From positions 66,163 through 130,162 of the forward strand of contig JBFLWU010000007.1 in assembly GCA_040757625.1 (NCBI GenBank): 64,000 bases of DNA, read 5' to 3'. Both the position numbers and the translations under genes were made by a program. Positions within the stretch are counted from its first letter, which is position 1. The number at the start of each line of letters is the position of its first letter. Positions 18,173 to 49,806 of this stretch are shown here, in pieces. Below the pieces are notes generated by a model. The model saw only the letters and a program-made list of their open reading frames with translations. It made no database searches and had not been told where the DNA came from. Source of the DNA: Thermodesulfobacteriota bacterium. GTDB lineage: Bacteria > Desulfobacterota > Desulfobacteria > Desulfobacterales > JARGFK01.

Positions 18173-19609
18173 TTATCCGGATTGTAAAGGTTCGGTCTGG
18201 AGAGATTCCTGCCACCATCCGATGATGGAGCCGTAGCGCCGGAACCGAACCCTTTCTCTTTTCTCCACCTCGCGAATCCAGTCGGCCAGTCCTGAGGCGT
18301 GATGAATGATCAGTGGGGTGCTGTGCTCGGGAAGGATGTCCGGGGCCAGCGCGTAGCGATCGATAATTTCCCTGATGTTTAGGGATGTTTGTTCGCTGTC
18401 CCAGGGGGTCGGATGGATAAACCCATGGTTGGCGCCATCGGCCCGGCTATATCCCCAAACGTTCGGAAATTCATCCTTGAGGCGGCGCATCCGGGATACA
18501 GCCTTCAGGATCGTTTGGACTGTCAGGCCCTTATTCAGGTTCCGCAAAATCGTATCATCGAAGGATTCGAACCCCACCGAGGCCAGAACGATCCGGATGC
18601 CCATTTCGCCTGCCAGCGACAGGGCTTCCCGCAGATTTTCGAATCCCCTGACAAACCAGTCTGCCCGCATGATCAGGTTTATGCGCGACAGCGGAATTTT
18701 TCTCTTTTCAGCCCCATAGAGCATCGGCAAGAGTCCTGCAAGCGGATTTTCATTGATCAGTTCAAATGGGATTTTGCGGCCGTCCGGGCCCACCGGCAAG
18801 GCGCCAATCTGGTCCAGAACAGCATCCGGGCTGACGACTCCCCGGAACCCCTTGTCTACCGCAACGTCGCAAAAGCTGCATCCCTTTATATCCGAGGCGA
18901 CTGTCAGCCCTTTCCGGTTATAGAAAAATGCCGGATAATCGATCTCAACTTTTCTCCTGCGGGCGGCATGCGGGCATCCGATCTGCTGCAGTACCTGGGC
19001 GCTGTCGACCCGATGGGGAGTTATCCGCGACTTTTCCAGCCGACAAATATTATCCCAGCGCACGGACCCAAAGTATCTCTCATTCCAGGGCAGGCGGTTT
19101 CTCTGAACAACCTTGCCGCCGGGCCCGATAAAAAGAAGACCGGGAACATCGCGCCGACGGTCGACATCCATCGCCGCCAGCAGCCCAAAAGATTGTTCGG
19201 CCGGCCCCTGCAACGCGCAGGAAAAATGCCCGGAAAGCCCCTGAAAACGATGCGGGAAATCCCCGCAGCCGACTTCTCCCCTGAAGTCCACATCCGCCTG
19301 AGGGCCGGCCAGAAGGGTAAAACAGCCTTCCTCTTTAAGTTCTTTGGCGAAGTTGAAGAGATCCTCGCGGCCGCTGAGGCTGGAAAATCCGATGATGGGG
19401 CGTTCAGATCCAAAATAGTCGAACAAGGCTTCTTTGAGCTGGGATTTATCATCCTCGCGGCTGATCGCGATGACGATACACGCGTAAGGTGTGTGGGCTT
19501 CAATCAATGTCGCCGCCAACTGGGGCCCCAGCAGCCCATAGGTTCCACCGGCAAAATAGCTGGTGATGACGACCATTTTCTTTTTTGATTTGGATGGATA
19601 CGTATCCAT
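18173..19609 (-). CDS. radical-SAM-like protein with a B12-binding-like N-terminal domain and a non-canonical Cys motif
   Basis: GFESFDDTILRNLNKGLTVQTILKAV is a typical radical-SAM barrel motif, but only GCSFC is present where RGCPxxCxFC is expected. The start is uncertain (TTG 19633, ATG 19609 or ATG 19576). Confidence 0.45.
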   Translation of the reverse strand: MDTYPSKSKKKMVVITSYFAGGTYGLLGPQLAATLIEAHTPYACIVIAISREDDKSQLKEALFDYFGSERPIIGFSSLSGREDLFNFAKELKEEGCFTLLAGPQADVDFRGEVGCGDFPHRFQGLSGHFSCALQGPAEQSFGLLAAMDVDRRRDVPGLLFIGPGGKVVQRNRLPWNERYFGSVRWDNICRLEKSRITPHRVDSAQVLQQIGCPHAARRRKVEIDYPAFFYNRKGLTVASDIKGCSFCDVAVDKGFRGVVSPDAVLDQIGALPVGPDGRKIPFELINENPLAGLLPMLYGAEKRKIPLSRINLIMRADWFVRGFENLREALSLAGEMGIRIVLASVGFESFDDTILRNLNKGLTVQTILKAVSRMRRLKDEFPNVWGYSRADGANHGFIHPTPWDSEQTSLNIREIIDRYALAPDILPEHSTPLIIHHASGLADWIREVEKRERVRFRRYGSIIGWWQESLQTEPLQSG

Positions 19610-20162
19610 TCTTCCTTGTCCCGGTTGAAACAATAATAGCTTTCGAACCGATACGACGTTTCGGCTCTTTTTCCCGCTTATTTCATGAAAAATTTTTTTC
19701 AGCCAGCTGAAAAAATTATGATAAGGGCCGTTTAGACACGAATACGGGGCAAATATAAAGGGTACAAAATGTTACTTCATTTGGAACAAGAAAAACAACT
19801 GAAAATTTTCACCCATCGGACGCAGCGCATTCGCCCATTTGCTGCGTTATCCGGGGCGTGCAAATGAACGAATGCACTTCGTGAAATAACCGGATTAATC
19901 CATGATCATATTTAAGCGCTTGGGGGTGCGGATTTTCGTTGGCTGCGCCTGATGAGATGGCGGCTGAAATGGATTGAAAAAGGATGGCTCAAAAAAAGGA
20001 AAATGCGCAAAACTGCCGAAACCTGTATATGATTGGAAAATAAGGTTTCCACGGGCTTGCGCCCGTGGTTATTTGCTGATGATCATGCTTATCAATGCGT
20101 GATAAAACGAGTCGCAAAATCACCGTCGTTCTCGGCCGTGCCGGCAACAGCGGCAGTCGGTC

Positions 20163-20444
20163 TTAAAATCGTCTCGGTTTAAACGGTTTTTTTGCGCGTT
20201 TGCCCCCCGGGTTCGCCGGGTTTACCTTGATATTCTTCCCTTCGATGAGTTTCCCGTTTAAGGCCTTGATCGCCTGGTCCGCTTCCGAATTGTTCGGCAT
20301 TTCCACGAAACCGAAACCTTTCGATCTGCCGGAAAACCGGTCCATGATGATTTTGGCGCTTTCAATTTCGCCGAACTCGGCAAACAGTGCTTTTAATCCG
20401 TCCTCGTTAAGGCTGTAAGCTAAATTGCCCACATAAATATTCAT
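20163..20444 (-). CDS. RRM-type RNA-binding protein
   Basis: RNP2 IYVGNL, RNP1 KGFGFVEM, and a basic tail. Confidence 0.88.
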   Translation of the reverse strand: MNIYVGNLAYSLNEDGLKALFAEFGEIESAKIIMDRFSGRSKGFGFVEMPNNSEADQAIKALNGKLIEGKNIKVNPANPGGKRAKKPFKPRRF

Positions 20445-20509
20445 TTAAACATCCTTTCCCTTGTTATGTTACATTGGTTCATCATTAAATTGCGGCATCA
20501 CCCGATTGA

Positions 20510-20553
20510 TTGAAAAAACAAAGGGCACTCCTCCCCTTTCGAAGGAATGCCCT
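20510..20553 (-). terminator. rho-independent terminator downstream of the cold-shock gene
   Basis: The minus-strand stem AAGGGCATTCC / GGAGTGCCCTT has one G-U pair and is followed by TTGTTTTTTC. Confidence 0.65.
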
Positions 20554-20572
20554 TTTGAATCAGAAGCCGGAA

Positions 20573-20773
20573 TTAGATCACCGTGACATTCACAGCTGCA
20601 GGACCTTTTTGTCCTTTTTCAATGTCGAATGTAACCCGGTCGCCTTCTTTAAGGGATTTAAAGCCTTCCGCCTTGATTCCGGAATGGTGCACAAACACAT
20701 CCGGACCGCCTTCCTGCTCAATAAATCCGAATCCTTTTCGATCATTAAACCATTTTACAATTCCCTCTGCCAT
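20573..20773 (-). CDS. cold-shock protein (CspA family)
   Basis: [18 protein letters not shown] and VFVHHS. The RBS AGGAGG lies 8 nt before the ATG at 20773. Confidence 0.92.
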
Positions 20774-20948
20774 AATCACATCCTCCTTTCTTGAATTTTC
20801 AATGTCTCAAACTGGAGGATGCCGCACCGGCAAACGAAAAGTTCCTTCAGAAGGAAACGTTCCTGCCCTCTTTGAAGCAGGCTTGAATAGTGATTGATAT
20901 TATCCGCTCTTATAACAGAATGCAAGCTAATTATTTATTTTTTTAAAA

Positions 20949-20980
20949 AAGAAGGGGCAAATCGCCCCCTCTTTTTTTTC
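20949..20980. terminator. bidirectional hairpin terminator downstream of the aor-ferredoxin operon
   Basis: The GAAGGGGC aaat(c) GCCCCCTC hairpin is flanked by A6/T6 on one side and T8 on the other. Confidence 0.55.
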
Positions 20981-21008
20981 GCCGCTTTCAGGCCGGCTTT
21001 GAACTCCT

Positions 21009-21503
21009 TTACTCCTGATGAAGGGCGGCAGCCTCCTTCTGGGCGGTTGAAAGCCTTTTGGCGGCATCCTTCTTCTTGGACTGGCTCAAACGGTCCGCAT
21101 CGATAAAAGCGACCGCCTTGACCTCGCAGAATCGCGCACACTGGGGGTCTCCGCCGCACAGGTCGCATTTCAGAACGGCCTTATCGATGGTGCTGTAATT
21201 CCTGGCGCCGAAGGGACAGACCGTCACGCAGGAGCGGCAGCCGATGCACTTTTCATAATCAATCACCACAAACCCGTCGCGCTCGTCGCGGGACGTTGCC
21301 TTAACCGGGCAGACGCTGATGCAGGGCGCGTCCTCGCACTGCTGGCAGGTCATGGGAACATACAGGCCTTCGGCTTCCCACTTCACCACCTTGATGCGGC
21401 TGCGGGCAGGGTTTGAAACCCCGTGGTGGGATACCGAACAGACCAGCTCGCACAGCCGGCAGCCGGTACATTTCTGATAATCTATCTTTAGGACTTTCTC
21501 CAT
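21009..21503 (-). CDS. 4x[4Fe-4S]-type ferredoxin subunit (AorA / DmsB-like electron-transfer subunit of AOR)
   Basis: Four Cys clusters (CTGCRLCELVC, CQQCEDAPC..C, CIGCRSCVTVC, CDLCGG..C..C). It lies immediately downstream of aor. Confidence 0.85.
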   Translation of the reverse strand: MEKVLKIDYQKCTGCRLCELVCSVSHHGVSNPARSRIKVVKWEAEGLYVPMTCQQCEDAPCISVCPVKATSRDERDGFVVIDYEKCIGCRSCVTVCPFGARNYSTIDKAVLKCDLCGGDPQCARFCEVKAVAFIDADRLSQSKKKDAAKRLSTAQKEAAALHQE

Positions 21504-21522
21504 TGTTTTCCTCCTTTACAAC

Positions 21523-23463
21523 TTATAAGAGATGGGACGGTTCCTTGTCCAGACCCAGGCGTTTTAATGTCTCCGGAGTGGGCACGCCGTTTTTGTCCCA
21601 GCCGTGATGGGCATAAAATTCGTCGATCATTTTTGCGAATTTTTTACGGTCGATTTTGGCTCCGATGACATCAGGCGCCCCCCGCAGACACGGCTCGTCA
21701 AAGTAACGATGGTTGAGCATATCGCCTTTTTTCAAGTCGTTGCGCGTCAACCCCTCCCGCAGATTGAACAACCGTTCGATATTGTTGCATCGTTCGGCGA
21801 TGTCCCATATGTCCTTGGGAGTCAGCTCCAGACCGGTATTGTAATACAGCACCTTGGGCCAATCCTCGAAATTCGGCAAAGTCGCCCCTAAAAAGGTTGT
21901 GTGATATTTGCAGATTCCCAGGCAGTCGACCGCCATGTAGCAATTCTCCTGCCAGAAAACCTGCCAGGGCTTGCCGATATATTCGGTATGCTCCGAACTT
22001 AAAGGACCGTCGTAGGGGACGGGGTTGCTGTATATCTTGCGCAAGACCTCTTCGGGGAGATGATACAGATCGATGGCCGGCCGGCTTCTCAGGTGATCGG
22101 ATCCCCGGGATGCGGTGGCGATATTCAGGGCCAGCCCGGGGGTGGCTCTTTCGTCTGAATGCAGGTTGTTCATGCCTTTGACCTGGATAAGGTAGTCAAA
22201 GGAATTCTTTCCGATCTTTTCCGACGCCGGGATGCCGCCGTCGGCCAGCGTATCCCCCAGCCAGCCGTCCCGGAAGCAGATGCGCCGAACCATCTCCAGC
22301 AGGGCTTCGTCATTGCCGAAGCGCAGTTCCAGACCGTCCGTCTCCTTGGTTGTGAGAATGCCCAGTTCGAAAAGTTCCATGGCCCAGGCAATCATGCTGC
22401 CGATCTCCAGATTGTCCACGCCCCACTGGTTCACCAGATGGTTGCCGGTCAGGACCGTCACGGCGCTTTTGCAATCAGGCTCACCGCCGAAGGCCCCCTG
22501 GGAGGTGTACTCCGGGCCTTCGTCATATTTCCCGGCATAAGGCCCCGTGGGAATTTTATACTTGGCGCGGCAGTGTACTTGGCAGGCGAAACAGCCGGTC
22601 ATATGGTGCGGCCCCATGGTTTCGGTGCAGATCTCGTCAATGCGCTCGGGCTCGATATCGTCGGCGTATTCGCACTGATTGTATTGGAAATTGCGGGTCC
22701 TGACGCCGCCCCAGGAATTGGTGGCGCCCCAGATAAACGGCGTCCCCAGGGTTCCCTGGGTTTGATTGACCTTGGCGCTGGTGATCTGGTCGATGAAGCG
22801 CTTGTTGTACTCCAGGGCATCGATGGGATGGGCGATTTTGATGTCCATGGTTCCCCGGGCGGCAATCGCCTTGAGATTTTTTGACCCCATCACCGCTCCC
22901 ATGCCGGTTCTGCCGCCGGAATTCTTGATGCCCGTCATGACGTTGGCAAACCGGACCAGATTCTCGCCGGCCGGACCGATCACCAGGCTTTTGATATCCT
23001 CGTCATCCAGTTCCTTGCGGATGGCCCACTGGGTTTCCGTGGTGGTCAGCCCCCAAAGATTGGCGGCGTCTCTAATTTCGATTGCGCCGTTATGGATCCA
23101 GAGATATACGGGCTTCTTGGCTTTTCCCTTGATGACCAGGTGATGAAATCCCGCCCAGGCCATTTCCGGCGCAAAGAAACCGCCCATATTGCAGCTTCCC
23201 AGCAGGTTGGTCAGGGGAGATTTTGCCATGACATGGGTCCGGGCGGTTGCCGATGCACAGGTCGCCGTCAGAATGCCGCCGCTGACCATTATGACGTTTT
23301 TGGGACCCAGGGGGTCCACGCCCTTCTTGGTGTGGTTATACAGCAGGTAGGCGTCCAGTCCCCGGCCGCCGAGAAATTTTCTGCGAATTTCCACCGGGAT
23401 CGGTTTGATTTCAATCTCTCCGCTGGTCAGATCGATATATGCAATCTTTCTATTTAAGGCCAT
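21523..23463 (-). CDS. aor: tungsten-type aldehyde:ferredoxin oxidoreductase family protein
   Basis: AOR N-terminus (IAYIDLTSGEI...FLGGRGL), and GMGAVMGSKNLKAI and RGSDHL motifs. The ATG at 23463 has RBS AAGGAGG. The track ORF start at 23613 is a 50-codon upstream extension. Confidence 0.9.
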   Translation of the reverse strand: MALNRKIAYIDLTSGEIEIKPIPVEIRRKFLGGRGLDAYLLYNHTKKGVDPLGPKNVIMVSGGILTATCASATARTHVMAKSPLTNLLGSCNMGGFFAPEMAWAGFHHLVIKGKAKKPVYLWIHNGAIEIRDAANLWGLTTTETQWAIRKELDDEDIKSLVIGPAGENLVRFANVMTGIKNSGGRTGMGAVMGSKNLKAIAARGTMDIKIAHPIDALEYNKRFIDQITSAKVNQTQGTLGTPFIWGATNSWGGVRTRNFQYNQCEYADDIEPERIDEICTETMGPHHMTGCFACQVHCRAKYKIPTGPYAGKYDEGPEYTSQGAFGGEPDCKSAVTVLTGNHLVNQWGVDNLEIGSMIAWAMELFELGILTTKETDGLELRFGNDEALLEMVRRICFRDGWLGDTLADGGIPASEKIGKNSFDYLIQVKGMNNLHSDERATPGLALNIATASRGSDHLRSRPAIDLYHLPEEVLRKIYSNPVPYDGPLSSEHTEYIGKPWQVFWQENCYMAVDCLGICKYHTTFLGATLPNFEDWPKVLYYNTGLELTPKDIWDIAERCNNIERLFNLREGLTRNDLKKGDMLNHRYFDEPCLRGAPDVIGAKIDRKKFAKMIDEFYAHHGWDKNGVPTPETLKRLGLDKEPSHLL

Positions 23464-23464
23464 T

Positions 23465-23737
23465 TTAACGTTCCTCCTTTGAAGCCAATTTTTCTGCGGC
23501 TGCTTTTTGCGCGATCTTGCGGTTGACGTCCCAGACCGGCCCGCGGATCCGCGGAAAATCGGGCCGGATCCATGCCACCCGAAATTCCAGGCCGCAGACC
23601 GGGCACTTGACATGATCGGATCCGGCCGTCGGCTCCAAACGCCCCATGCAGCTGGGATTGTGGCATCGGAACTTGCCGTAGGTCCGCGTCTTTCGCAGAC
23701 TCTCAGCCGCCGAAACTTTATCTTTCTCGATTGCCAT
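23465..23737 (-). CDS. small zinc-ribbon protein, translationally coupled to aor
   Basis: CHNPSC...CPVCG motif. Its stop TAA (23465-23467) is 1 nt from the aor ATG, and the aor RBS lies inside its 3' end. Confidence 0.5.
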   Translation of the reverse strand: MAIEKDKVSAAESLRKTRTYGKFRCHNPSCMGRLEPTAGSDHVKCPVCGLEFRVAWIRPDFPRIRGPVWDVNRKIAQKAAAEKLASKEER

Positions 23738-24029
23738 GATTGTCTCCTTTCAATATTGATTCAAAACATTAACATTCGTATTGCCATAAAGACTTTCTGA
23801 CTTTAGCAGGATGATTGATAGACTGGGCGAAAGGCACAAGGCGCACGGCGTACGGAAAAAGCGCATCCCCTCTTTCCTTGAACCGTGGGTCCCTATCCGT
23901 TAGCCATATTTGCCCACTGCTTACTGCCTGTTATTCACTTCTCCCCAATCCCTCTAACCCGCGACCTGCAACCCGTAACGCGTCATTATTATTTACTCGT
24001 TGCTGTTCCCCCTGTACCCAGATCCCTTC

Positions 24030-24560
24030 CTACGGGGCCATCCGCTTAATCGCCTCCATATACTTCTTTTTCTTGCAGCGCGGGCAGGTGGACAAGAGCG
24101 CCGCGATCTCTTTGCGACTTTCCAGGTTCACCAGATATTCCAATTCTTTTTTCGGCATCAGATACCCGCCGCAATCCGGGCACGTGACCGCATAGCGGGT
24201 ATGCCCGCGCTGCAGCATATACGCTCTAAGGTCCGTCATAAAACTTTGAAACAACACCCCGCTAGGGCAGTAAAACGTGCATTCTTCGCAGGTCAGGCAG
24301 AACCAGAAGGCCTCGTCGCCGACTTTGTCGGGTTCAAACAGGATCCGCTCCACAATCGCCCGGGACGACCGGCCGTAATCGTATCGACCGTAAAGATTTA
24401 CCATCGGACAAACGGCAGAGCATTTGCCGCACTCTAAACACAGGTTGAGGCGATAGTCGCTTTTGAATTTCTCGATGCTGCCCCGCTCAAATACCGGTAT
24501 CTGTTTTTTAGCTTGCGATTTCATAATCTTTAGGTGTTTAGCCTGAAGACTGCAGGCCAT
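24030..24560 (-). CDS. HdrC-like 2x[4Fe-4S] protein with a C-terminal zinc ribbon
   Basis: CLECGKCSAVCP and CLTCEECTFYCP, plus CPDCGG...CPRC. An alternative start exists at 24524. Confidence 0.7.
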   Translation of the reverse strand: MACSLQAKHLKIMKSQAKKQIPVFERGSIEKFKSDYRLNLCLECGKCSAVCPMVNLYGRYDYGRSSRAIVERILFEPDKVGDEAFWFCLTCEECTFYCPSGVLFQSFMTDLRAYMLQRGHTRYAVTCPDCGGYLMPKKELEYLVNLESRKEIAALLSTCPRCKKKKYMEAIKRMAP

Positions 24561-24694
24561 TGTTATTGCCTTGTCTTTCGGTTCACATTACCACGATGTC
24601 CGTTGTTTGCTGTCAGTTGTTCGTTGAAACCCTGCTTCGGACAACTGACTTTCAGCCAATCTCTTTCAGCCTTCAGTCTATTTACCTCCAGCCT
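24561..24694. repeat. intergenic heptad-word palindromic element between hdrA-like and hdrC-like genes
   Basis: The left end tttagcctgaagactgcagg (reaching into the 5' end of the longer hdrC-like ORF) matches the right end ctttcagccttcagtctatttacc. There is an internal 12-bp stem gtcagttgttcg / cggacaactgac. Confidence 0.6.
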
Positions 24695-26401
24695 TTATGT
24701 CCGATGCCCCTCCATGCCGGCGCCCACCATGGCCAGGATCTGCTCGTCCGTGAACCCTTTTAACTGCAATGCGCCGCTGAGGCACGATGCTGCGCATAAG
24801 CCGCACCCCTTGCATTCGGTCGAGTTTACCCGGGCGATCCGCACGGTTCCGCCCTCGGAATTTCTGGATTCAATCCAGCCTACCGCGCCGAAGGGGCATA
24901 TTTCAACGCACCGGCCGCAGGCTGAACACCGCAGGGGATTGACCTCGGACGTAAAGGCTTCGGTGACCACCTGCCGCCGGGCCATGGGAACCGCGGCCTT
25001 GGCCGCCGCCGCATACCCCTGGGCAACGCATTCCGAAATATCGGTGGGATACCGGGCGCAGCCCGCGATAAAAATCCCGTCGGCAGGAAACTCCACCGGT
25101 CGGAGCTTTTGATGGGCCTCCATAAAAAAGCCTTCATTGCCCAGCGGAATCTTCAGCATCCGGGACAGCTGCCGGTTATCCTTTGCCGGCACCAGCGGCG
25201 CCGTCAAAACCACCAAGTCGGTCTCCAGGGCAGCCTTTTTGCCCGTCAGTTCATGGATAACCGTTACCTTGCCGGCTTTATTTTGGGCGCCGGTTATCCG
25301 AGGCGGCTGCTCCCGGTTGAAGCGGATGAATTGCACCCCCAGGGAAAGCGCTTTCTGGTAATATTCCTCAAAGATCTTCCCGCAGGCCATCACATCCCGG
25401 TGCAGCACCCTGACTGAGGTTTCGGGCCGCCTTGACTTTATCAGGCTCGCGTTCTTCATGGCCGTTACGCAGCAGAAGCGGCCGCAATAGGTCCGATCCT
25501 GGCTGCGGGCACCCACGCAGTTGATCATGACGACCTGAGTAAAACCGTCATATTTATTTTTAAGACGCTCTTCCAGTTCAAGCTGGGTAATCACATTTGA
25601 GAAACGGCCATATCCCATCAGCCCGTGAGGTTTGAGTTCCTCTGCGCCCACCGCCACAATGATGGTGCCGATATTGAATTCTTCGTCCTGTCCATTCAAC
25701 CGCACAAGCGCCGTAAAGTTTCCGATAAATCCTTTGACGGCCGCCACCTCAGCCTGGAGGTGCACGCGAATGTTGTCATGCCGAGAGACCGCCTCGACCA
25801 GCGGCGTCAGCAACGCGGCGGCGGACTGATCGGACGGAAAAAGGATGTTGACGTTCTGCAAAAGCCCGCCCAGGCGGTTTTGCTTTTCAACGAGCTCCAC
25901 CCGGTAGCCCTGATTGGCCAGGGTCAGGGCGGCTGAAAGACCTGAAACGCCCCCACCGATAACCAGAGTAGCCGGTGTTACCGCCGTGGACTGGTCCTGC
26001 TGGGAGGTCAGCAGGCTGACCTTGGCCACCCCCATTCGAACCAGGTCCTTGGCCTTGGCGGTGGCTTCCACCGGCCGCCCCAGGTGAACCCAGGAGCAAT
26101 GCTCCCTGAGATTGACAAATTCAAAGAGATATTTATTCAGACCTGCCCGTTCGCAATTCTTTTTAAAAAGGGGTTCATGGGTCCGCGGGGTGCAGGAGGC
26201 CACCACCACCCGGTTGAGGTTCCGCTCTTTGATCTTATTGCGAATGGCGGAAAGACCGTCCTCTGAACAGGTATATAGATTCCCCATGGCGCAAACGACG
26301 TTGGGCAACGTTTCGGCATACCTTACCACCTCGGGCACGTTGACCGTACCCCCGATATTGGTTCCGCAGTTGCAGACAAAGACGCCGATTCTAAGAGACA
26401 T
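24695..26401 (-). CDS. hdrA: HdrA-like FAD/FeS protein (heterodisulfide reductase subunit A family)
   Basis: N-terminal IGVFVCNCGTNI, GGGVSGLSAAL FAD fold, and C-terminal ferredoxin CSACGRCVEICP / CKGCGLCAASC. The ATG at 26401 has a GGAG RBS. Confidence 0.85.
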   Translation of the reverse strand: MSLRIGVFVCNCGTNIGGTVNVPEVVRYAETLPNVVCAMGNLYTCSEDGLSAIRNKIKERNLNRVVVASCTPRTHEPLFKKNCERAGLNKYLFEFVNLREHCSWVHLGRPVEATAKAKDLVRMGVAKVSLLTSQQDQSTAVTPATLVIGGGVSGLSAALTLANQGYRVELVEKQNRLGGLLQNVNILFPSDQSAAALLTPLVEAVSRHDNIRVHLQAEVAAVKGFIGNFTALVRLNGQDEEFNIGTIIVAVGAEELKPHGLMGYGRFSNVITQLELEERLKNKYDGFTQVVMINCVGARSQDRTYCGRFCCVTAMKNASLIKSRRPETSVRVLHRDVMACGKIFEEYYQKALSLGVQFIRFNREQPPRITGAQNKAGKVTVIHELTGKKAALETDLVVLTAPLVPAKDNRQLSRMLKIPLGNEGFFMEAHQKLRPVEFPADGIFIAGCARYPTDISECVAQGYAAAAKAAVPMARRQVVTEAFTSEVNPLRCSACGRCVEICPFGAVGWIESRNSEGGTVRIARVNSTECKGCGLCAASCLSGALQLKGFTDEQILAMVGAGMEGHRT

Positions 26402-26692
26402 AATGCTCCGCCGTCCGAAAACCAAACTTTGGCTACCCCCGGAGGGGTTGTGCCCGGTTGGAATTTCATTTGATCATAAAATTCCAAACATCAAATTTTA
26501 AATATCAAAAAAATTCCAATGGCCAAACTCAGAAAAACGGCAGATGCTTTGCCTTTGAAAAGTTTTGGTCATTGAACATTACATTTTGAGATTTGTTTGT
26601 AATTTGTTTTTTGGAATTTGAAATTTTAAACTCCAAAATCCATAAACCGGGGTTTTTCTGCCGGTATAAATCTCCTGCAGAGCAAACCTCGA

Positions 26693-29392
26693 TCACTCCC
26701 TTGCCAGCAGTTCCGCCGCCCGGGCGGCCGCGGCCGATGCCCGGACCACCGAATCGGGCACGTCCATGGGCGACTGGCAGAACCCGCAGCTAAACACGCC
26801 CTCCCGGGTGGTGCCGAAAGGGCTGGTCAATCCCTGCGGGCTGACGATAAAACCGTAATCGTCGATTTCAATGCCCAGCTTTTGGGCAAGCGCAGCATTG
26901 CCGACACTCGGCATAAGCGCCTGGGCCAGAATGACCATGTCAAACTCCCGGGCCTCCAATTTCCGGTTGACGGTATCCTCGAAATGGACGACCGGATTAT
27001 GATTATCGCCGTTTTCCGTTATCCGGCCCGGCCGGGCGCGAATGTATTCAACCTTGTACTGGCTTTTGGCTCTCTGGATGTATTCCTGAAAGCCCTTGCC
27101 CACCGCCCGCATATCCATATAAAAGATGGTGGAAGACAGCTGCGGATAATGCTCCCGTGCCAGGACGGCCTCCTTGGTGGCGTGCATGCAGCAGACCGCG
27201 GAACAGTATTTTTGATGGCGGACATCCCGCGACCCCACACACTGGATAAAAGCCAGTTCTTTAGGCTCCCTTGCGTCCGACGGGCGTTTCAGATGTCCAT
27301 GGGTCGGTCCGGACGCGCAGATCATTCGTTCAAACTGCATGGCCGTAATCACGTTCGATAGTTTCCCCCAACCATATTCGGTCAGAGCGGAGATGTCGTA
27401 AAGATCAAAGCCGGTGGCCAGAATCACGGCGCCCACATCCAGCTCTACCGCCCGGTTCGCCTGCCGGAAGTTGACCGCCTGGGCCTTGCAGACTTTCATG
27501 CACTGATAACACTCTGAACAAATCCCGCAGGAGATGCAGCGTGCGGCCTCCGCCAGAACCTGCGCCTGGGTAAACCCCAGTTGGACTTCGGAAAAGTTTT
27601 TGCGCCGGCGGGCCGGTTTCAGCCGCGGCATCCGGTTGCGGGGTATGCGGTCATACCCGCCGGCGGGTATGTTCGGCGCCGCGTTCCACTGAATGTCGCG
27701 GTTTTCACGAAGGTCTGCACCGCGGATAAACCGATCGATGGAAATCGCCGCCTGTTTGCCGGCCTCGATGGCCTCGATGACCGTTTTCGGCCCGCTGACG
27801 GCATCGCCGCCGGCAAAGATATCGGGCTCATCGGTCTGCAGCGTAACGGGATCCACATTCATGGTGCCCCAGTCCGAAAGCGTGCAGGCGCATTCCGGAC
27901 CCAGGCAGGACCAATCGGATTCCTGACCGATGGCGGGGATGACCCCGTCCACTTTGAGGACAAATTCCGATCCTTCCAGCGCCACCGGGCGTCTGCGGCC
28001 GCCGGCATCCGGATCACCCAGTTTCATTTTGCGGCACGCGATGGCCCTGACCTTTCCGCCTTCCCCGATGATCCGGATTGGGCTCGTCAGGGTCAGAATT
28101 TCAATTCCCTCTTCGCGGCATTCCTCGATCTCCTCCGCATTGGCCGGCATCTCCTGAAGACTGCGGCGGTATATGATAAAAGGCTTTTTGGCACCGAGAC
28201 GCAGGGCCGTGCGGACAGTATCCATGGCGACGTTTCCGCCGCCGATCACCGCAATGCGCTTTCCGGCAAGGGAAATCGGTTTGCCGAGATTGACGTCCCT
28301 TAAAAAATCAACACCGGGAAACACCCCTTCCAGGTCTTCGCCCTCGATCTCCATCTTCTTGCATTCCTGGGCGCCGATGCCCAGAAAGACGGCGCGATAG
28401 CCCTGTCTGCGGATCTGTTCGATGGTAATGTCCCTGCCGACTTCCACCCCGGTCCGAATGTCGACGCCCATGTCCCGGAGGACCTGGATCTCGGCGGCAA
28501 TGACCTCTCTGGGCAGGCGATAGTCCGGGATGCCCACCGAAAGCATGCCGCCGGCAACCGGCAGTTTTTCCAAAACAGTCACCCCATACCCTTCCCGGGC
28601 CAGATAATAGGCGCAGGACAGTCCGGCCGGTCCCGAACCGATAACGGCGATCTTTTCGTCTTTAGCGGCTTTGATTTCAGGAACGTATCTTTTTTCTGCG
28701 TGAAGCTCCCTGTCCGCGACAAAACGCTTGATGGAATCGATGGCCACCGGCTCATCCAGCTCTCCGCGTGTGCAGGCCGATTCGCAGGGATGGTGACACA
28801 CCCGGCCGCAAACCGCCGGGAGCGGATTTTCTTCCTTGATCAGTTTCAGCGCTTCATCGAAACGGCCCTGGGCCGCCAGAGCGACATACCCCTGAACACT
28901 GATATGGGCCGGGCAAGCGGCCTTGCAGGGGGCTGTCCCCCTGCGGGTGACGGTAAAAGTAGACGGAACGGCCTGGGGAAAGAATTTATGGATGGCCTTG
29001 CGCCGACCCAGGCCCGCGTTGAAATGGTCACTGATCGTGACCGGGCATCCATCGATACAGTCGCCGCAGCCCACGCACTTGTCTTCGTCGATGTAGCGGG
29101 CCTTGCGAATAATGCGGGCCCTGAATTTTCCGGCCCGGCCGGTCAGGCCGTCGAGTTCCGAGTATGTCAGCAGCTTGATATTCTCATGGTTGGCGCATTC
29201 GATCATCTTGGGGGCCAGAATACACATGGCGCAGTCGTTGGTGGGAAAGGTTTTGTCCAGCTGCGCCATACGACCGCCGATGCTGGGGTTCTGCTCCACC
29301 AGGTAGACCTGTTTCCCCATGCCGGCCAGGTCGATGGAGGCCTGCATCCCTGCGATTCCGCCGCCGATGACCAGAACTGCATTGTGATTCAC
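26693..29392 (-). CDS. HdrA-like protein with an inserted GltD/NfnB-type NAD(P)H:FAD module (HdrL-type fusion)
   Basis: HdrA N-terminus (VLVIGGGIAGMQAS...NDCAMCILAPK) and C-terminus (FIQCVGSRD...YCSAVCCMHATKEA) flank NPLPAVCGRVCHHPCESAC, VIGSGPAGLSCAYYL, GIPDYRLP and FAGGD. Confidence 0.85.
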   Translation of the reverse strand: MNHNAVLVIGGGIAGMQASIDLAGMGKQVYLVEQNPSIGGRMAQLDKTFPTNDCAMCILAPKMIECANHENIKLLTYSELDGLTGRAGKFRARIIRKARYIDEDKCVGCGDCIDGCPVTISDHFNAGLGRRKAIHKFFPQAVPSTFTVTRRGTAPCKAACPAHISVQGYVALAAQGRFDEALKLIKEENPLPAVCGRVCHHPCESACTRGELDEPVAIDSIKRFVADRELHAEKRYVPEIKAAKDEKIAVIGSGPAGLSCAYYLAREGYGVTVLEKLPVAGGMLSVGIPDYRLPREVIAAEIQVLRDMGVDIRTGVEVGRDITIEQIRRQGYRAVFLGIGAQECKKMEIEGEDLEGVFPGVDFLRDVNLGKPISLAGKRIAVIGGGNVAMDTVRTALRLGAKKPFIIYRRSLQEMPANAEEIEECREEGIEILTLTSPIRIIGEGGKVRAIACRKMKLGDPDAGGRRRPVALEGSEFVLKVDGVIPAIGQESDWSCLGPECACTLSDWGTMNVDPVTLQTDEPDIFAGGDAVSGPKTVIEAIEAGKQAAISIDRFIRGADLRENRDIQWNAAPNIPAGGYDRIPRNRMPRLKPARRRKNFSEVQLGFTQAQVLAEAARCISCGICSECYQCMKVCKAQAVNFRQANRAVELDVGAVILATGFDLYDISALTEYGWGKLSNVITAMQFERMICASGPTHGHLKRPSDAREPKELAFIQCVGSRDVRHQKYCSAVCCMHATKEAVLAREHYPQLSSTIFYMDMRAVGKGFQEYIQRAKSQYKVEYIRARPGRITENGDNHNPVVHFEDTVNRKLEAREFDMVILAQALMPSVGNAALAQKLGIEIDDYGFIVSPQGLTSPFGTTREGVFSCGFCQSPMDVPDSVVRASAAAARAAELLARE

Positions 29393-29453
29393 GCCGGGAA
29401 TCCTTTTTGGGTTTAACGCCGAGAGCTATTGCCGACTGTTAAAAAAATATTCA

Positions 29454-29469
29454 GTTCATTATCGTGAAC
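29454..29469. promoter_or_regulatory. operator-like inverted repeat GTTCATTATCGTGAAC
   Basis: GTTCA-N6-TGAAC lies just downstream of a minus-strand TTGACA-16nt-TATTAT promoter candidate facing the hdr fusion gene. Confidence 0.55.
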
Positions 29470-29577
29470 AATATTTTCTTGAATAATATCAGTTTCCGCT
29501 GACCTGTCAAGAGAAAACTTATCATATAAAACCTTTTGAATCATGGTAAAATACGGCTTGCCCCGCTAAAAATAGTA

Positions 29578-29606
29578 TTGACAAAGAAATAAAACAATTG
29601 TAATAG
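29578..29606 (+). promoter_or_regulatory. sigma70-like promoter of iclR (TTGACA, 17 nt spacer, TAATAG)
   Basis: TTGACA lies at 29578-29583 and TAATAG at 29601-29606. Confidence 0.45.
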
Positions 29607-29617
29607 TTATAAAAAAA

Positions 29618-29633
29618 ATTCATCATGGTGAAC
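29618..29633. promoter_or_regulatory. operator-like inverted repeat ATTCATCATGGTGAAC
   Basis: This is the same (G/A)TTCA-N6-TGAAC motif. It lies between the -10 box and the iclR ATG (29635). Confidence 0.55.
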
Positions 29634-29634
29634 A

Positions 29635-30405
29635 ATGCCGCCGAAATATCTTGCACCGTCCGTAACCAAAGCGTTTCAGATTTTAAAACTGGTGACCAAA
29701 TCAGACCGGGGATTGAAAATCACCGACCTGTCCAAAGCGCTGGGAATCGGCAAAAGCACCGTTCATGGCATCACCGCCGCCCTTGAAGAGCTGGGCGCCA
29801 TCCTGCGCGACCCTGTCAGCAAACGGTATCGCCCGGGACTTACCCTTCTGGAACTGGGCAAATCGGCCCATTCCCAGTTCGATTTGAAAGATCTGGCCCG
29901 GCCGGTAATGGAAGACCTGATGGAAAACGCCCAGGAGTCTGTCTTCCTGGGGGTGCTCAACGGGGAGCACATCACGATCCTGGATATCGTCGAATCCCGC
30001 AACGACCTGAAAATCACTTCCCCGGTGGGTACCGCCCTTCCGCTGATGGCCGGCGCAGCCGGAAAAGTTTTTCTGTCGGAAATGAACGCGGCGCAACGAT
30101 CCAGAATTATTGAATCCAGGGGGATTCCCCGATATACGGATAATACCGTCACCGATCCTCAGCAGTATCTTTCAGAAATTGAAAACGTTCGAAAGACGGG
30201 GTGGGCCACTGATTATGAAGAATATATACCCGGGGTCCGGGCCGTGGCCGCGCCGATCCGTTCAAGCCGTCATTTCAGCGCCGCCATCTGGGTGGTGGGG
30301 TTTAAAATGACCCTGGATGATGATAAAATGAAAATGCTGGCAGCGGCCACCACGGATGCGGCTGAACGCATCAGCCGCAAGTTCGAGGAACAGCAGCTTT
30401 TATGA
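29635..30405 (+). CDS. IclR-family transcriptional regulator
   Basis: N-terminal wHTH (SVTKAFQILKLV...LSKALGIGKSTVHGI) and a C-terminal IclR effector domain. Confidence 0.9.
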   Translation: MPPKYLAPSVTKAFQILKLVTKSDRGLKITDLSKALGIGKSTVHGITAALEELGAILRDPVSKRYRPGLTLLELGKSAHSQFDLKDLARPVMEDLMENAQESVFLGVLNGEHITILDIVESRNDLKITSPVGTALPLMAGAAGKVFLSEMNAAQRSRIIESRGIPRYTDNTVTDPQQYLSEIENVRKTGWATDYEEYIPGVRAVAAPIRSSRHFSAAIWVVGFKMTLDDDKMKMLAAATTDAAERISRKFEEQQLL

Positions 30406-30689
30406 AAATAAAAATCGAATCATTGGGTCTGCCGCTTCTTTCCAGACTGATCGGGAAAAAGACCGAAATCGATTTTCCCGGCAAAACGGTCGCGGACCTT
30501 GTCGCCCATCTGGTGAAACGCCATGGCCAAGAGATGCAAAAGGCGCTCCTGGATAAAGACGGCAGGCTGGATCTGACCATTCAGGTCATGATGAATGATG
30601 AGGGAATTCTACACCGGGAACAGTATCCAAAGCGGATTCTGAAAGACGGCGACAAGGTGATATTCATGATTTTGGTCGGCGGGGGCTAA
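30402..30689 (+). CDS. MoaD/ThiS-family ubiquitin-like sulfur-carrier protein
   Basis: 95 aa ending in ...ILVGGG (C-terminal Gly-Gly). Its start overlaps the iclR stop (ATGA). Confidence 0.72.
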   Translation: MKIKIESLGLPLLSRLIGKKTEIDFPGKTVADLVAHLVKRHGQEMQKALLDKDGRLDLTIQVMMNDEGILHREQYPKRILKDGDKVIFMILVGGG

Positions 30690-31495
30690 TCCCCATAGGG
30701 AATGCTGGAACGCGTGTGTACCTTTAAATCCCTGACCCCCTGAATCCCTTTCACCGTTGCAAGGATCTTCCGCACCAGGGTTTCCTCCTGAGATTCCGGA
30801 ACCGTGGTTGCGATATGAACAATGCCGTCTTTAGCAGCCACTTCTATATCGGGCTTCAGGTCTACCAGCAACGCCTTGACCTCGGCGGACAAGACCAGAT
30901 CATCCATCCCTTTCTGCGATTCAGGGGTTGTTTGAAAATCTTTCAGGCCGACGGTATTGCAGATGATTTCCGCTGCATCGTCAACGGAAATTTTCTTGAT
31001 ATGAATGACCAGGTCATACAGGCGCGGATCCCCGGTATCAATCCCGTAAAGGTGTAGGCTCCACCTCCTTCTTTCCTCGTCGTCAAGTTCAAGCATCCGC
31101 CGGGCCTCTTTTTCGGAAATGCCGTGACGCTCCTTTTCGAGTTTGACGCGATCTTCCATTTCAGCAAGGATTCTCACCTTAAGAACGTGAGAAACGCCCT
31201 TGAGAAAAAAATGCCCGGCAAGACCGTGATAGACGACACGATCCTTTTGGAATTGTTGCAGCAGGGCCTTCTGGATATATGCCACATATTTTTCTTTCCG
31301 GTATCCGAAGCGATCTAAAATCGACGGCGCATCGTGAATGGCCCGCACCAGCTTGATCTCCGGTATATTAAAGTCTTTGGAGGCTTCCACCAGTATGTCA
31401 CGGGCAATGCACGCGTAGCCCAGTCTTTTGGCAACCTTTTCAGCCACTTCTTTTCCGCGGCTGTACGACCCCCTGGAGATGGTAACAATCGACAT
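30686..31495 (-). CDS. cytidylate-kinase-like family protein with a BON-like C-terminal domain (paralog 1)
   Basis: MSIVTISRGSYSRGKEVAEKVAKRLGY. It is roughly half identical by eye to the product of 37628-38428. Confidence 0.65.
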   Translation of the reverse strand: MSIVTISRGSYSRGKEVAEKVAKRLGYACIARDILVEASKDFNIPEIKLVRAIHDAPSILDRFGYRKEKYVAYIQKALLQQFQKDRVVYHGLAGHFFLKGVSHVLKVRILAEMEDRVKLEKERHGISEKEARRMLELDDEERRRWSLHLYGIDTGDPRLYDLVIHIKKISVDDAAEIICNTVGLKDFQTTPESQKGMDDLVLSAEVKALLVDLKPDIEVAAKDGIVHIATTVPESQEETLVRKILATVKGIQGVRDLKVHTRSSIPYGD

Positions 31496-31773
31496 GGTGT
31501 CCCCCTGTAATAATTTTAGTCCCTTTACCCCAATCGAGCGAAAGCCCTGGGTGCCCAGCTTCAAGGCGTCCGAGGGCGAAGCCGTAGTATACTACTGCGA
31601 GTCCTCGGCAACGCAGAAGATGGGCGCCCAGGACTTTCCCAAAGGGTAAACAAAATGGAGACTTTTCTTAAAATTATATCGCTTTGAAAATAGCATGATG
31701 AGATCCGTTCAAATAGCCTAATAATATTTATTTGTTAAAAAGGTCCTCTATTTTGTTTACGCTCATTTGGGGT

Positions 31774-37627: not shown

Positions 37628-38428
37628 TTACGTCTCAAAAGGAACCACACTCACCCTCACCTCTCTTATTCCATCAACAGCTTTCAAGGCTTGTTTGATC
37701 TCGGCCCCGGCCTTCTCTTCCAGAGAGAGAGCCGTTTCAATTCTCACGAGAACAACCGCGTTCTGGCAACTGACCTGCGATGAAGGGTACCGTTCAATGA
37801 TGGCTGCCTTGGCAGAGGCCGCCACACTGAGGTCTTCCATTTTCTGCTGCGATTCGGGTGTCGTCTGAAAACGTTTCAGGCTGACCTTGTGACAAATAAT
37901 ATCTACGGCATCCTCCAGGGTCAGCTGGCCGATGTTGATGACCATGTCGTAGAGGCTGGGATCGGATGTTTCGATTCCGTAGAGCTGCTGGCTCCACTTT
38001 CGGCGCTGCTCATCTATCTTGTGAATATATTTTGCCGCTTCATCCCTTGAAAACTTGTTCCGTTTCATGACGATCTTGATGCGCTCCGCCAGGGACGCTA
38101 TGATCCTTACTTTGAGGACATGGGAAACATCCTGAACGAAAAAATGCCCGGCAAATCCATGATAGACGACATTGTCTTTCTTTAAATTTTTTAAAACGGC
38201 CGCCTGGATGTACGCGATATATTTTTCTTTTCTAAAAAGGATGTTGTCCAGAAAAGTGGGAGAGTCATAGATGGCATGAAACAGCTTTATTTCAGGAATA
38301 TTGAAATCTTTGGATGCTTCAATCAGAATCTCCCTGGAGATGCAATCATAGCCAAGTCTCTCGGCTACGTTTTCAGCGATTTCTTTTCCATGGCTATATG
38401 AACCGCGTGATATCGTAATGACCGCCAT
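37628..38428 (-). CDS. cytidylate-kinase-like family protein with a BON-like C-terminal domain (paralog 2)
   Basis: MAVITISRGSYSHGKEIAENVAERLGY, collinear with 30686-31495. Confidence 0.65.
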   Translation of the reverse strand: MAVITISRGSYSHGKEIAENVAERLGYDCISREILIEASKDFNIPEIKLFHAIYDSPTFLDNILFRKEKYIAYIQAAVLKNLKKDNVVYHGFAGHFFVQDVSHVLKVRIIASLAERIKIVMKRNKFSRDEAAKYIHKIDEQRRKWSQQLYGIETSDPSLYDMVINIGQLTLEDAVDIICHKVSLKRFQTTPESQQKMEDLSVAASAKAAIIERYPSSQVSCQNAVVLVRIETALSLEEKAGAEIKQALKAVDGIREVRVSVVPFET

Positions 38429-39852: not shown

Positions 39853-40013
39853 GATGTTCTCCTCTCTCCGAAATAGAATCAAGTCATTCAGTGCTTCTCG
39901 CAAATATTTCGAAAATAGAATCCAAGGATTCGGGGGGCAAGGGTTCGGCTACCCCAATTTTCATTATTACACTTACCCCCTTAAACCCCGGACCCTTTGA
40001 ATCCTATTGGCTA

Positions 40014-41597: not shown

Positions 41598-41705
41598 TGC
41601 ATTGCTCCTTTAAATTCCTGAATCCTGCATAAAATTGTCGAGAATCGGATCACCATGGCGGCCCTGTTGATATTAACTTATCCCTTGTTGTCAACCCAAA
41701 AAGGG

Positions 41706-43730: not shown

Positions 43731-43882
43731 CAGCACCTGTCCTGTTCTGTCTTTTAGCCCGTTGGTGAAACAAACATGTATCCGATTGCCAGCCCCGCCA
43801 ACGGCTGGATGCGAAAGTACGTTGGCAGGCACCGGGAAAGCCGCAGGCGGGGCGGCTTTAGACGCAGTTTTACAATAACCTG

Positions 43883-49080: not shown

Positions 49081-49110
49081 ATTTTCAATCCTTTGAGGAT
49101 AATCCCTTTA

Positions 49111-49602: not shown

Positions 49603-49790
49603 CCAGTCAACTCCAAATAATTTAAGGCATGGAATATTGTTCATAATAGAGAACTTTTTTTAAATTACTATAAATATTAAAACGCCATCCGTCAATAATT
49701 TTCTTTAAAATATAATAAAATTATTTATATTATTCTGATATAATAATATTTATTTAAGGCGCCCCGATGCATTTCTAATTTTTTAGTAAT

Positions 49791-49806
49791 GTTCACCATG
49801 GTGAAC
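49791..49806. promoter_or_regulatory. perfect 16-bp palindrome GTTCACCATGGTGAAC (third copy of the GTTCA-N6-TGAAC operator)
   Basis: It lies about 190 nt upstream of the ferredoxin operon start (49602) in an AT-rich promoter region. Confidence 0.55.

Follow-up and report, generated by a model that had tools for sequence, protein, structure and literature searches.

The 64,000-nucleotide stretch of DNA considered here (from contig JBFLWU010000007.1 of a Thermodesulfobacteriota bacterium, and called the window throughout) carries on its minus strand, from 21009 to 29392, six genes in one orientation that join a tungsten enzyme and its iron-sulfur wire to a module of the heterodisulfide reductase (Hdr) type from which the usual catalytic subunit is missing. 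This is a combination of subunits that has not yet been described. We give roughly even chances to the reading that the genes make up one operon, repressed by an IclR-family regulator, and that the operon encodes a multisubunit W/pyranopterin oxidoreductase fitted with an exchangeable electron plug of the Hdr type, working by flavin-based bifurcation or confurcation. The locus would then hold a modular W oxidoreductase with an Hdr-type plug or, equivalently, an Hdr-like complex in which a W enzyme is the terminal catalytic subunit. The interval under study is made up as follows, in the order of transcription:

26693-29392, minus strand: HdrL, an HdrA::NfnB/GltD fusion of 899 amino acids (domain search and PDB matches)
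24695-26401, minus strand: HdrA-like flavoprotein of 568 amino acids (domain search and PDB matches)
24030-24560, minus strand: HdrC-like 2x[4Fe-4S] protein of 176 amino acids (motifs and PDB match)
23738-24029, no strand: spacer of 292 bp between the hdrC-like and zinc-ribbon genes (checks for repeats, signals, Rfam matches and conservation)
23465-23737, minus strand: zinc-ribbon protein ZnR, 90 amino acids with 4 Cys and a C-terminal helix
21523-23463, minus strand: WOR/AOR-family pyranopterin enzyme of 646 amino acids (Pfam and PDB matches)
21009-21503, minus strand: WorS/AorA-type polyferredoxin, 164 amino acids with 16 Cys and four [4Fe-4S] sites
20952-20971, minus strand: terminator-like hairpin and then a T-run, directly 3' of the ferredoxin gene

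The original prediction (a short note made from the letters of the stretch and its open reading frames) had described six co-directional genes with this domain content, and the list of open reading frames and the Pfam and other domain searches agree with it. It had also said that there is no HdrB or HdrD, the subunits whose CCG domains mark a heterodisulfide reductase of the HdrABC type. That too holds, no such subunit having been found in the 64-kb window by a motif scan of the long open reading frames or among the frames scanned with Pfam.

The catalytic core and the Hdr-type module

The enzyme carries AFOR_N and AFOR_C domains (Pfam E values 4e-75 and 1.5e-100), and its CxxCxxxC...C motif aligns to the cluster cysteines of the aldehyde oxidoreductase (AOR) of P. 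furiosus (PfAOR). By sequence, then, it belongs to the WOR/AOR superfamily of pyranopterin W enzymes, an assignment from which W and Mo cannot be told apart. Against the PDB it scores 306 bits with PfAOR, 305 with WorL of 9mqx (E 1e-89) and 264 with AorB of A. aromaticum. The ferredoxin encoded next to it had been called a four-cluster subunit, and indeed its 16 Cys fall into four motifs; its best matches are WorS (9mqx_E, E 2e-43, over almost the full length) and AorA (8c0z_C, E 3e-40).

A class II benzoyl-CoA reductase system of the BamB type, the alternative that the original prediction had itself raised, would also bring together a WOR-family subunit, an iron-sulfur subunit and an HdrA-like protein (as in BamBCE), and aromatic acids are often sensed by IclR regulators. 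We find it hardly credible, and the matches effectively refute it: BamB (4z3w) stands sixth of the nine PDB matches of the enzyme, at 217 bits against 306 for PfAOR and in a best stretch that goes no further than query residue 425, and BamC stands ninth among the matches of the ferredoxin. These rankings place the pair with cores of the WorSL/AorAB type, not with benzoyl-CoA reductase. In BamB, Cys322 is a ligand to W, a trait shared with YdhV. The YdhV of E. coli served as proxy for the position of this cysteine relative to Thr320 of the window enzyme. In the YdhV alignment, the cysteine-bearing insertion of seven residues that precedes the Y/H-T motif in the YdhV/BamB type is absent, there is no Cys in DEGPEYTSQGAFGG, and by this proxy the enzyme lacks a Cys ligand to W of the BamB kind. 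The ferredoxin has four cluster motifs where BamC has three clusters. Nor is the set of BamC, BamD (CCG), BamE, BamF and BamGHI encoded alongside, no homologue of BamD, BamF or BamGHI being present in the window; no gene of the CCG, FlpD or NuoEFG-like kinds was found among the scanned open reading frames or by the motif scan of the window. The PDB ranking, the YdhV alignment and the domain scans thus agree that the enzyme is not BamB and has no Bam subunits nearby.

Likeness to AOR does not extend to the whole active site. A review of 2025 (PMC12096430) lists Glu313, Tyr427 and His448 (PfAOR numbering) as universally conserved in known AORs. The window enzyme keeps the [4Fe-4S] cysteines and the equivalents of Thr243, Glu311, Tyr312 and His448, and it replaces Glu313 by Thr320 (the motif EGPEY-E becoming EGPEY-T) and Tyr427 by Ser436 (PAY-DPR becoming LHS-DER). 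From the second shell that would define an AOR sensu stricto (Thr243, Glu313, Tyr427 and His448; PMC12096430), Thr and His are kept and the other two are lost. The replacements are fixed, both being present in 80 of 80 members of the clade and in a homologue of 65% identity from a metagenome locus (L088). Among characterised AOR sequences that were aligned, Glu occupies the Glu313 position in five of five, and Tyr427 is found in all three of the AOR type that align there; a canonical AOR paralogue in one related locus (L002) retains both residues. Because Glu313 and Tyr427 are replaced, the assignment of the enzyme to aldehyde/acid chemistry is weaker than had been assumed. The original prediction of a bifurcating aldehyde/acid module has therefore fared unevenly: the module gains from the synteny and the operator-based co-regulation described below, while the aldehyde/acid label has lost ground.

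The zinc-ribbon protein belongs to a tiny family: in a set of 1.84 billion representatives, 77 clusters match it at E<=1e-3. Almost all of the matches are small proteins (about 40-200 amino acids), and no match is a recognisable fusion with a WOR subunit; within the family, a PRIRGPVWDVNR motif is highly conserved. ZnR matches no Pfam family, and a single-sequence AlphaFold2 model (pLDDT 66), compared by Foldseek with the PDB, found generic zinc ribbons only, the best at E 0.46.

The remaining three proteins form the Hdr-type module. HdrL consists of an HdrA-type FAD domain (thioredoxin-reductase-like) with an inserted ferredoxin domain, and it has neither the N-terminal nor the C-terminal domain of HdrA; its last 275 residues or so (625-898) match residues 293-567 of HdrA (5odc_A). 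Nested within the inserted ferredoxin domain, at residues ~150-600, is a module of the NfnB/GltD type with sites for NAD(P)H, FAD and two [4Fe-4S] clusters. Residues 153-558 match NfnB (4ylf_B) at E 6e-101, in keeping with the GltD/NfnB-type insert that had been proposed, and an HdrA FAD domain with such a nested module makes HdrL a member of the HdrA::GltD fusion family. On the two sides of the insert, HdrL is 78% and 69% identical to HdrA', an insert-free protein of 432 amino acids found in related loci termed type B below; thus type A loci, to which the window belongs, are type B loci plus the NfnB module.

The HdrA-like protein lacks the inserted ferredoxin domain but keeps the other three: an Fe-S domain at the N-terminus, the FAD domain and, at the C-terminus, a 2x[4Fe-4S] ferredoxin domain. 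Residues 12-240 align to 5-233 of 5odc_A, and a second stretch aligns to 309-647 of a related chain, 9sfi_A. The four HdrA domains are therefore not found in one chain, as they are in the HdrABC type; HdrL (or HdrA') and the HdrA-like protein have complementary sets of them, split across two proteins. Natural single-chain HdrL::HdrA fusions of ~1476 amino acids occur in many Desulfobacterota, and the window HdrL and HdrA together are 54-62% identical to these. The complementary domains and the natural fusions point to a pseudo-heterodimer of HdrL and the HdrA-like protein, equivalent to the HdrA2 dimer.

The HdrC-like protein is recognized by its two CxxCxxCxxxCP motifs and by a match to HdrC (5odc_C) at E 8e-7; no membrane domain was detected with Pfam, and a single-sequence AlphaFold2 model (pLDDT 36) was unusable. 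At its C-terminus, where the HdrB/CCG partner would be, there is a CxxC...CxxC zinc ribbon and a predicted short helix. This tail (CxxCG-Y-MPK...CxxCKK, then the helix) is present in 14 of 14 AOR-linked copies, including that of L088, and in none (0) of those beside Hdr pairs without an AOR. Next to HdrL/HdrA pairs that have no AOR, the matches to the HdrC-like protein are mostly HdrD-like proteins of 357-589 amino acids with CCG motifs. The dichotomy between tail and CCG means that the disulfide-reducing part is missing exactly where the W enzyme adjoins.

Recurrence of the locus and its regulation

A scan of the genome collection yielded 413 relatives of the AOR, and the counts given here rest on the best 80 (loci L001-L080), whose enzymes are 83-88% identical to that of the window and each exactly 646 amino acids long. 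Wherever there is enough sequence to tell, ZnR precedes the enzyme (77 of 77 loci) and an AorA-type ferredoxin follows it (72 of 72); a divergent IclR is found in most loci. What varies from locus to locus is the module between IclR and ZnR. Type A loci have HdrL-HdrA-HdrC, type B loci the insert-free HdrA' with HdrA and HdrC, type C loci a MetF-like protein, a ferredoxin and a MetV-like protein, and type D loci a TmcC/HmcE-like membrane anchor fused to a 2x[4Fe-4S] domain; many loci have no module at this place and an operon of AorA paralogue, ferredoxin and MetV-like protein beyond IclR. ZnR-AOR-ferredoxin is therefore an invariant core, the Hdr module being an option among four or more alternatives. 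The notion that the Hdr module is a fixed feature of the AOR must be given up.

Of the 61 loci whose upstream sequence is long enough, 11 have HdrA and HdrC directly upstream of the core and in the same orientation; of the 39 in which it extends to 6.5 kb or more, 9 are of type A or B. Three metagenome loci bear on the matter as well: L081 is a near-copy of the whole neighbourhood, L082 is of type B, and L088 has a rearranged operon around its 65%-identical enzyme (AOR-AorA-HdrA'-...-HdrA-MvhD-...-HdrC-MoaD). The synteny of hdr and aor that the original prediction proposed to look for in other genomes is thus there to be seen (11/61, two metagenome loci and the rearranged L088). The HdrL and HdrA pair by itself is a widespread, general-purpose unit, mostly accompanied by CCG proteins, MetF or MvhD. 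A metagenome scan with an HdrA alignment used patterns that are generic HdrA motifs; it retrieved mostly distant HdrA genes (45-57% identity) and serves as a baseline, not as a targeted search for the reverse synteny. In a neighbor-joining tree of 82 AORs, the loci carrying Hdr genes are scattered, though the tree (~85% identity throughout) is too flat for counting gains and losses.

Some variants of these loci deserve mention in their own right. The 82 enzymes compared, all of 646 amino acids and at least 83% identical, come from metagenome-assembled genomes (MAGs) labelled Desulfobacterota, Aminicenantes, Fibrobacterota, Fischerbacteria, Clostridia and Myxococcales; conservation under such different labels is unusually strong and would mean horizontal transfer, mis-binning, or both. 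Six loci (L010, L012, L065, L068, L073 and L076) have the TmcC/HmcE-like anchor-2x[4Fe-4S] fusion between iclR and ZnR, with an operator pair of its own. The W enzyme thus seems to exist in a quinone-linked form as well, perhaps the 'U type' that PMC12318220 mentions. Five metagenome loci (L098, L101, L103, L107 and L113) hold tandem arrays of up to five HdrA'(~430 amino acids)-HdrA(~560 amino acids) pairs together with HdrD-like CCG proteins.

The control region lies between hdrL and the divergent genes, an IclR regulator and a MoaD-like protein, both of which the original prediction had placed correctly:

29483-29510, minus strand: strong sigma-70-like promoter site upstream of hdrL, TTGACA-16-TATTAT, 11/12 matches, with TG extension
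29454-29469, no strand: palindromic IclR-type operator GTTCACGATAATGAAC, consensus GTTCAT-N4-ATGAAC, between promoter and hdrL
29618-29633, no strand: second, weaker operator copy (3 mismatches), beside the iclR start codon
29635-30405, plus strand: IclR-family regulator, divergent
30402-30689, plus strand: MoaD/ThiS-like protein (WorX-like, with C-terminal GG), overlapping the iclR stop codon

The 16-bp palindrome GTTCAT-N4-ATGAAC is paired in the iclR-proximal intergenic region of most loci, the two copies being about 150-330 bp apart and most often about 150-165 bp; in the window the pair between iclR and hdrL is spaced at 164 bp, as in other loci. There are 11 matches to it in the window, against 1.4 expected by chance. 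An IclR regulon should have a palindromic operator common to the promoters of its targets, and this one stands both at iclR-hdrL and upstream of aorA2 (see below), conserved across loci; we therefore predict that it is the operator of the IclR protein. Type A and B loci that carry this IclR have the pair solely ahead of the first Hdr gene, the gap between HdrC and ZnR always being free of it; type D loci have a second pair ahead of ZnR. The placement only 5' of the Hdr genes argues for co-transcription of these genes and the core as one operon. The only convincing terminator-like hairpin after the hdrL promoter on the minus strand is the one after the ferredoxin gene, at 20952-20971, which is likely to be the end of the operon.

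Within the operon, the start of the AOR gene is the ATG at 23463, preceded by the ribosome-binding site AAAGGAGG. This gives 646 amino acids in place of the 696 of the mechanical open reading frame, and the sequence is identical to a protein annotated in a Thermodesulfobacteriota MAG; no entry for the exact protein was found in the gene-position index. The ZnR stop codon is 1 nt ahead of the AOR start codon. For the HdrA-like protein the database copy has 568 amino acids, and the mechanical open reading frame of 576 begins at a TTG further upstream. The gap between HdrC and ZnR (23738-24029), which had been described as ~290 bp filled with repeats, is real at 292 bp. The repeats are not: it contains no direct or inverted repeats, no operator and no site like a promoter or terminator. 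Rfam matches nothing in it, and conservation with the closest relative is confined to the ribosome-binding site and its surroundings and the ends of the flanking genes. The AT-rich spacer with the repeats is the one between HdrL and HdrA (26402-26692), which has several TTGGAATTT/AAATTCCAA direct and inverted repeats and one weak promoter-like site, and in place of which the closest relative, L081, has merely ~60 nt. A riboswitch (e.g., for molybdenum cofactor) or other RNA in the gaps was considered and rejected, Rfam giving for 20000-31000 only a cspA-like match downstream of the operon.

About 20 kb from the main locus lies what is likely a second operon of the same regulon (48008-49644):

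49639-49654 and 49791-49806, no strand: operator pair 5' of the AorA2 operon, 152 bp apart
49111-49644, minus strand: AorA paralogue (AorA2)
48676-49080, minus strand: ferredoxin of 134 amino acids
48008-48679, minus strand: MetV-like/DUF5981 protein

In many related genomes, iclR has this trio of AorA paralogue, ferredoxin and MetV-like protein beside it. The modules of MetF-like, EutA-like and membrane-anchor kinds seen in related loci were not found in the window.

How firmly does this tie the Hdr genes to the core? One might suppose that they are adjacent by chance and have no functional link, as most related loci have no Hdr module. The same gene order recurs, however, in diverse MAGs scattered over the AOR tree, the placement of the operators is common to the loci, and the HdrC tail is specific to AOR-linked copies, all of which make chance very improbable. 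A less extreme supposition is that two physically separate enzymes are co-regulated: a ferredoxin-dependent ZnR-AOR-AorA, and a soluble, Nfn/Hdr-like HdrL-HdrA-HdrC acting as a ferredoxin:NAD(P)+ (or other) oxidoreductase that merely rebalances carriers. It would explain why the core does without Hdr genes in most loci, why HdrL/HdrA pairs are widespread away from AORs, and why long spacers separate the Hdr genes from the core. It would not explain why the HdrC-like protein loses its CCG part and gains a zinc-ribbon tail exactly beside an AOR (14/14), nor why the linkage of Hdr and AOR persists through the rearranged gene order of L088, and a stand-alone HdrL/HdrA/HdrC without a terminal catalytic subunit would have no obvious third substrate site. 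We consider separate enzymes rather unlikely.

A proposed complex and how it might work

The bifurcating complex that we favor would have two parts. The first, the invariant catalytic core, would comprise the WorL-like enzyme, the WorS/AorA-like chain of four [4Fe-4S] clusters and the clade-specific zinc-ribbon protein. The second, the exchangeable plug, here of the Hdr type, would be a pseudo-heterodimer of two complementary HdrA-like flavoproteins with the HdrC-like protein. HdrL would supply an FAD domain and the inserted ferredoxin domain that carries the nested NfnB-type NAD(P)H module, and HdrA would supply the N-terminal domain, another FAD domain and the C-terminal ferredoxin domain. 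The HdrC-like protein would be a two-cluster wire whose HdrB-binding part has been replaced by a zinc ribbon and helix. Electrons might pass, in either direction, between the W centre, the AorA clusters, the clusters of the HdrC-like protein and the HdrA/HdrL flavin. From the flavin, one branch would run by way of the inserted ferredoxin domain into the nested NfnB module, where NAD(P)(H) would accept or donate electrons, and the other by way of the C-terminal ferredoxin domain of HdrA to a second carrier, probably ferredoxin. The W enzyme would take the position that HdrB has in HdrABC, and a reaction of very low potential at the W site would be coupled to NAD(P)+/NAD(P)H and the second carrier, making the module a functional analogue of the Bfu-type plug in WorABCSL.

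A physical complex, its docking through the HdrC tail, the bifurcation, the direction of electron flow and the substrate are what we infer from these arrangements of genes and domains. By analogy with WorABCSL (PMC13328260), a substrate may be oxidized with simultaneous reduction of ferredoxin and NAD(P)+. Or, since the active site is altered, bifurcation may drive a reduction of very low potential at the W site, resembling class II benzoyl-CoA reductase. As to docking, in the 9mqx structure the WorS units form an Fe-S nanowire, to which the Bfu plug attaches through the C-terminal zinc finger and helix of WorA (PMC12318220). The HdrC-like tail and ZnR have an element of this kind, a parallel that is one of analogy only.

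Comparison with known systems helps to place the proposal. Closest to it is WorABCSL of Acetomicrobium mobile (Class IV, electron-bifurcating, PDB 9mqx; PMC12318220, PMC13328260), with which it has in common homologous WorL and WorS and an operon that also encodes a plug of several flavins and Fe-S clusters with a site for NAD(P). In both, a ThiS/MoaD-like gene (WorX) lies close by and a subunit of the plug ends in a zinc finger and helix. The plug of WorABCSL, however, is BfuABC (NuoEFG-like, with FMN), while the window has one of the HdrA type (with FAD) that contains the NfnB insert and includes an HdrC-like wire. The window locus also has the extra, invariant ZnR of 90 amino acids, and Thr and Ser in place of Glu313 and Tyr427; with no Bfu/Nuo-like subunits beside its WorL and WorS, it is not a Class IV WOR. 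AorABC of Aromatoleum aromaticum (PDB 8c0z; Class III or N-type WOR) has homologous AorA and AorB, a MoaD-like accessory gene, and linkage to NAD(P) through an extra flavoprotein. The window has no AorC-type subunit, its flavoprotein module being of the Hdr/Nfn type. With HdrABC-MvhAGD (PDB 5odc), the locus shares an HdrC-type subunit of two clusters, and FAD domains of HdrA that contain the cluster motif of four Cys. It differs in lacking HdrB/CCG and MvhD, in splitting the HdrA domains over two proteins, in the NfnB module within the inserted ferredoxin domain and in the zinc-ribbon tail of its HdrC. Class II benzoyl-CoA reductase (BamBCDEFGHI) resembles it in that a WOR-family enzyme is powered, for a reduction of very low potential, by HdrA-like and other bifurcating modules, and differs in that the window enzyme is not BamB-like and BamD, BamF and BamGHI are absent. 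Finally, we take QmoABC of sulfate reducers to consist of two unequal HdrA-like flavoproteins and an HdrC-like Fe-S domain, and as such to resemble the type B set of HdrA'(432 amino acids), HdrA and HdrC. QmoC has a membrane cytochrome b domain and QmoB an MvhD-like domain, neither of which occurs in the window module.

The name HdrL and the idea of an HdrA::GltD protein come from the genome of Desulfobacterium autotrophicum and hold for other Desulfobacterales as well (Strittmatter et al. 2009, PMC2702500). The fused HdrL proteins sit with MvhD, MetF, GcvH-like or CCG proteins, whereas the window has split genes beside a W enzyme. The legend of Fig. 4 in that paper (PMC2702500) includes Aor5 and ferredoxins among the numbered genes of hdr loci, without stating the locus or proposing a function, and it is all that literature searches for an AOR-Hdr complex turned up. 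A WOR classification of 2026 recognizes Class I (L only), Class II (LS), Class III (LS with an FAD subunit), Class IV (LS with BfuABC, and also Bam) and Class V (membrane-associated), plus an uncharacterised quinone-linked type. It describes no aldehyde-type WorSL with an HdrA/HdrC module, a subunit set that the original prediction likewise did not know.

Simpler than a bifurcating complex would be a non-bifurcating, NAD(P)-linked W oxidoreductase, in which the Hdr proteins are no more than a wire and an NAD(P)+ reductase, like AorC, and substrate and NAD(P)+ give product and NAD(P)H. HdrL does have a complete NfnB/GltD-type NAD(P)H module, AorABC is a case of a WorSL core that is NAD-linked without bifurcation, and direct reduction of NAD(P)+ by an aldehyde is thermodynamically feasible. 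But two HdrA-type flavoproteins and an HdrC wire far exceed the needs of a simple diaphorase, and type B loci keep HdrA', HdrA and HdrC with no NAD(P)H module to serve. Also, HdrA retains its C-terminal ferredoxin domain, which in Hdr complexes is a point of electron entry. On balance this simpler enzyme seems unlikely. Perhaps, on the other hand, it is wrong to class the W enzyme as an aldehyde oxidoreductase. The enzyme might represent a third type of WOR active site (Thr/Ser, no Cys ligand) that carries out a reduction of very low potential, with electrons pushed below the potential of ferredoxin by Hdr-type bifurcation and the W enzyme in HdrB's place, the same core being re-plugged elsewhere into membrane-anchor (quinone), MetFV-like or polyferredoxin modules. 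We regard this as quite unlikely.

A number of observations weigh against the bifurcating Hdr-AOR complex that we favor. About 80% of the loci, though otherwise nearly identical, have no Hdr module, and so the core works without it. Type B loci have no NAD(P)H site, and so NAD(P)H is not intrinsic to the partnership of Hdr and AOR. Aldehyde oxidation at about -500 to -580 mV could reduce ferredoxin or NAD(P)+ with no need for bifurcation, and the changes of Glu313 to Thr and Tyr427 to Ser leave the substrate uncertain. In a tight operon one would expect shorter gaps than the 292, 134 and 291 bp inside the six-gene set, and there is the weak promoter-like site between HdrL and HdrA. The HdrC tail has no sequence similarity to the zinc finger of WorA, and the single-sequence AlphaFold models (pLDDT 36 for the HdrC-like protein and 66 for ZnR) are too poor for use.

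Neighboring genes and the wider meaning of the locus

Downstream of the operon, at 20163-20861, are a gene for an RRM-type RNA-binding protein, between the terminator and two radical-SAM genes, and a gene for a cold-shock protein with a leader like the cspA thermoregulator (Rfam RF01766 at E 1e-13 and 60.9 bits, which is less than the gathering score). One of the radical-SAM genes encodes a KamA-family aminomutase-like protein (16307-18106) and the other a weaker paralogue (18173-19633). The latter recurs 3' of the AOR core in many loci (L001, L004, L007, L025 and others), often with a gene for an EutA-like protein (a reactivase), which the window does not have. On the other side of the operon are two cytidylate-kinase-like paralogues, 51% identical, at 30686-31564 (abutting the MoaD-like gene) and 37628-38428. 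A cluster on the minus strand (38662-44827) encodes a 2-hydroxyacyl-CoA-dehydratase-like protein, an activator ATPase of the BcrAD/BadFG type, an AMP-forming CoA ligase, and thiolase-like and ketopantoate-reductase-like proteins.

Multisubunit W oxidoreductases with bifurcating plugs were described structurally only in 2025, and the classification of 2026 recognizes only plugs of the Bfu type, plus the special case of benzoyl-CoA reductase. If the reading proposed here is true, the locus adds an Hdr-type plug to those known for W oxidoreductases, and the HdrA/HdrC core can swap its terminal catalytic subunit, CCG/HdrB for a W enzyme. It would bear on the exchange of modules in the evolution of flavin-based bifurcating complexes and on what the HdrL proteins, abundant in marine sulfate reducers, do. 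The clade of enzymes is extremely conserved and widespread in sediment Desulfobacterota, and yet it is without two "universal" catalytic residues of AOR; its substrate is therefore a testable question, and the predicted IclR operator may offer a direct handle for finding the inducer.

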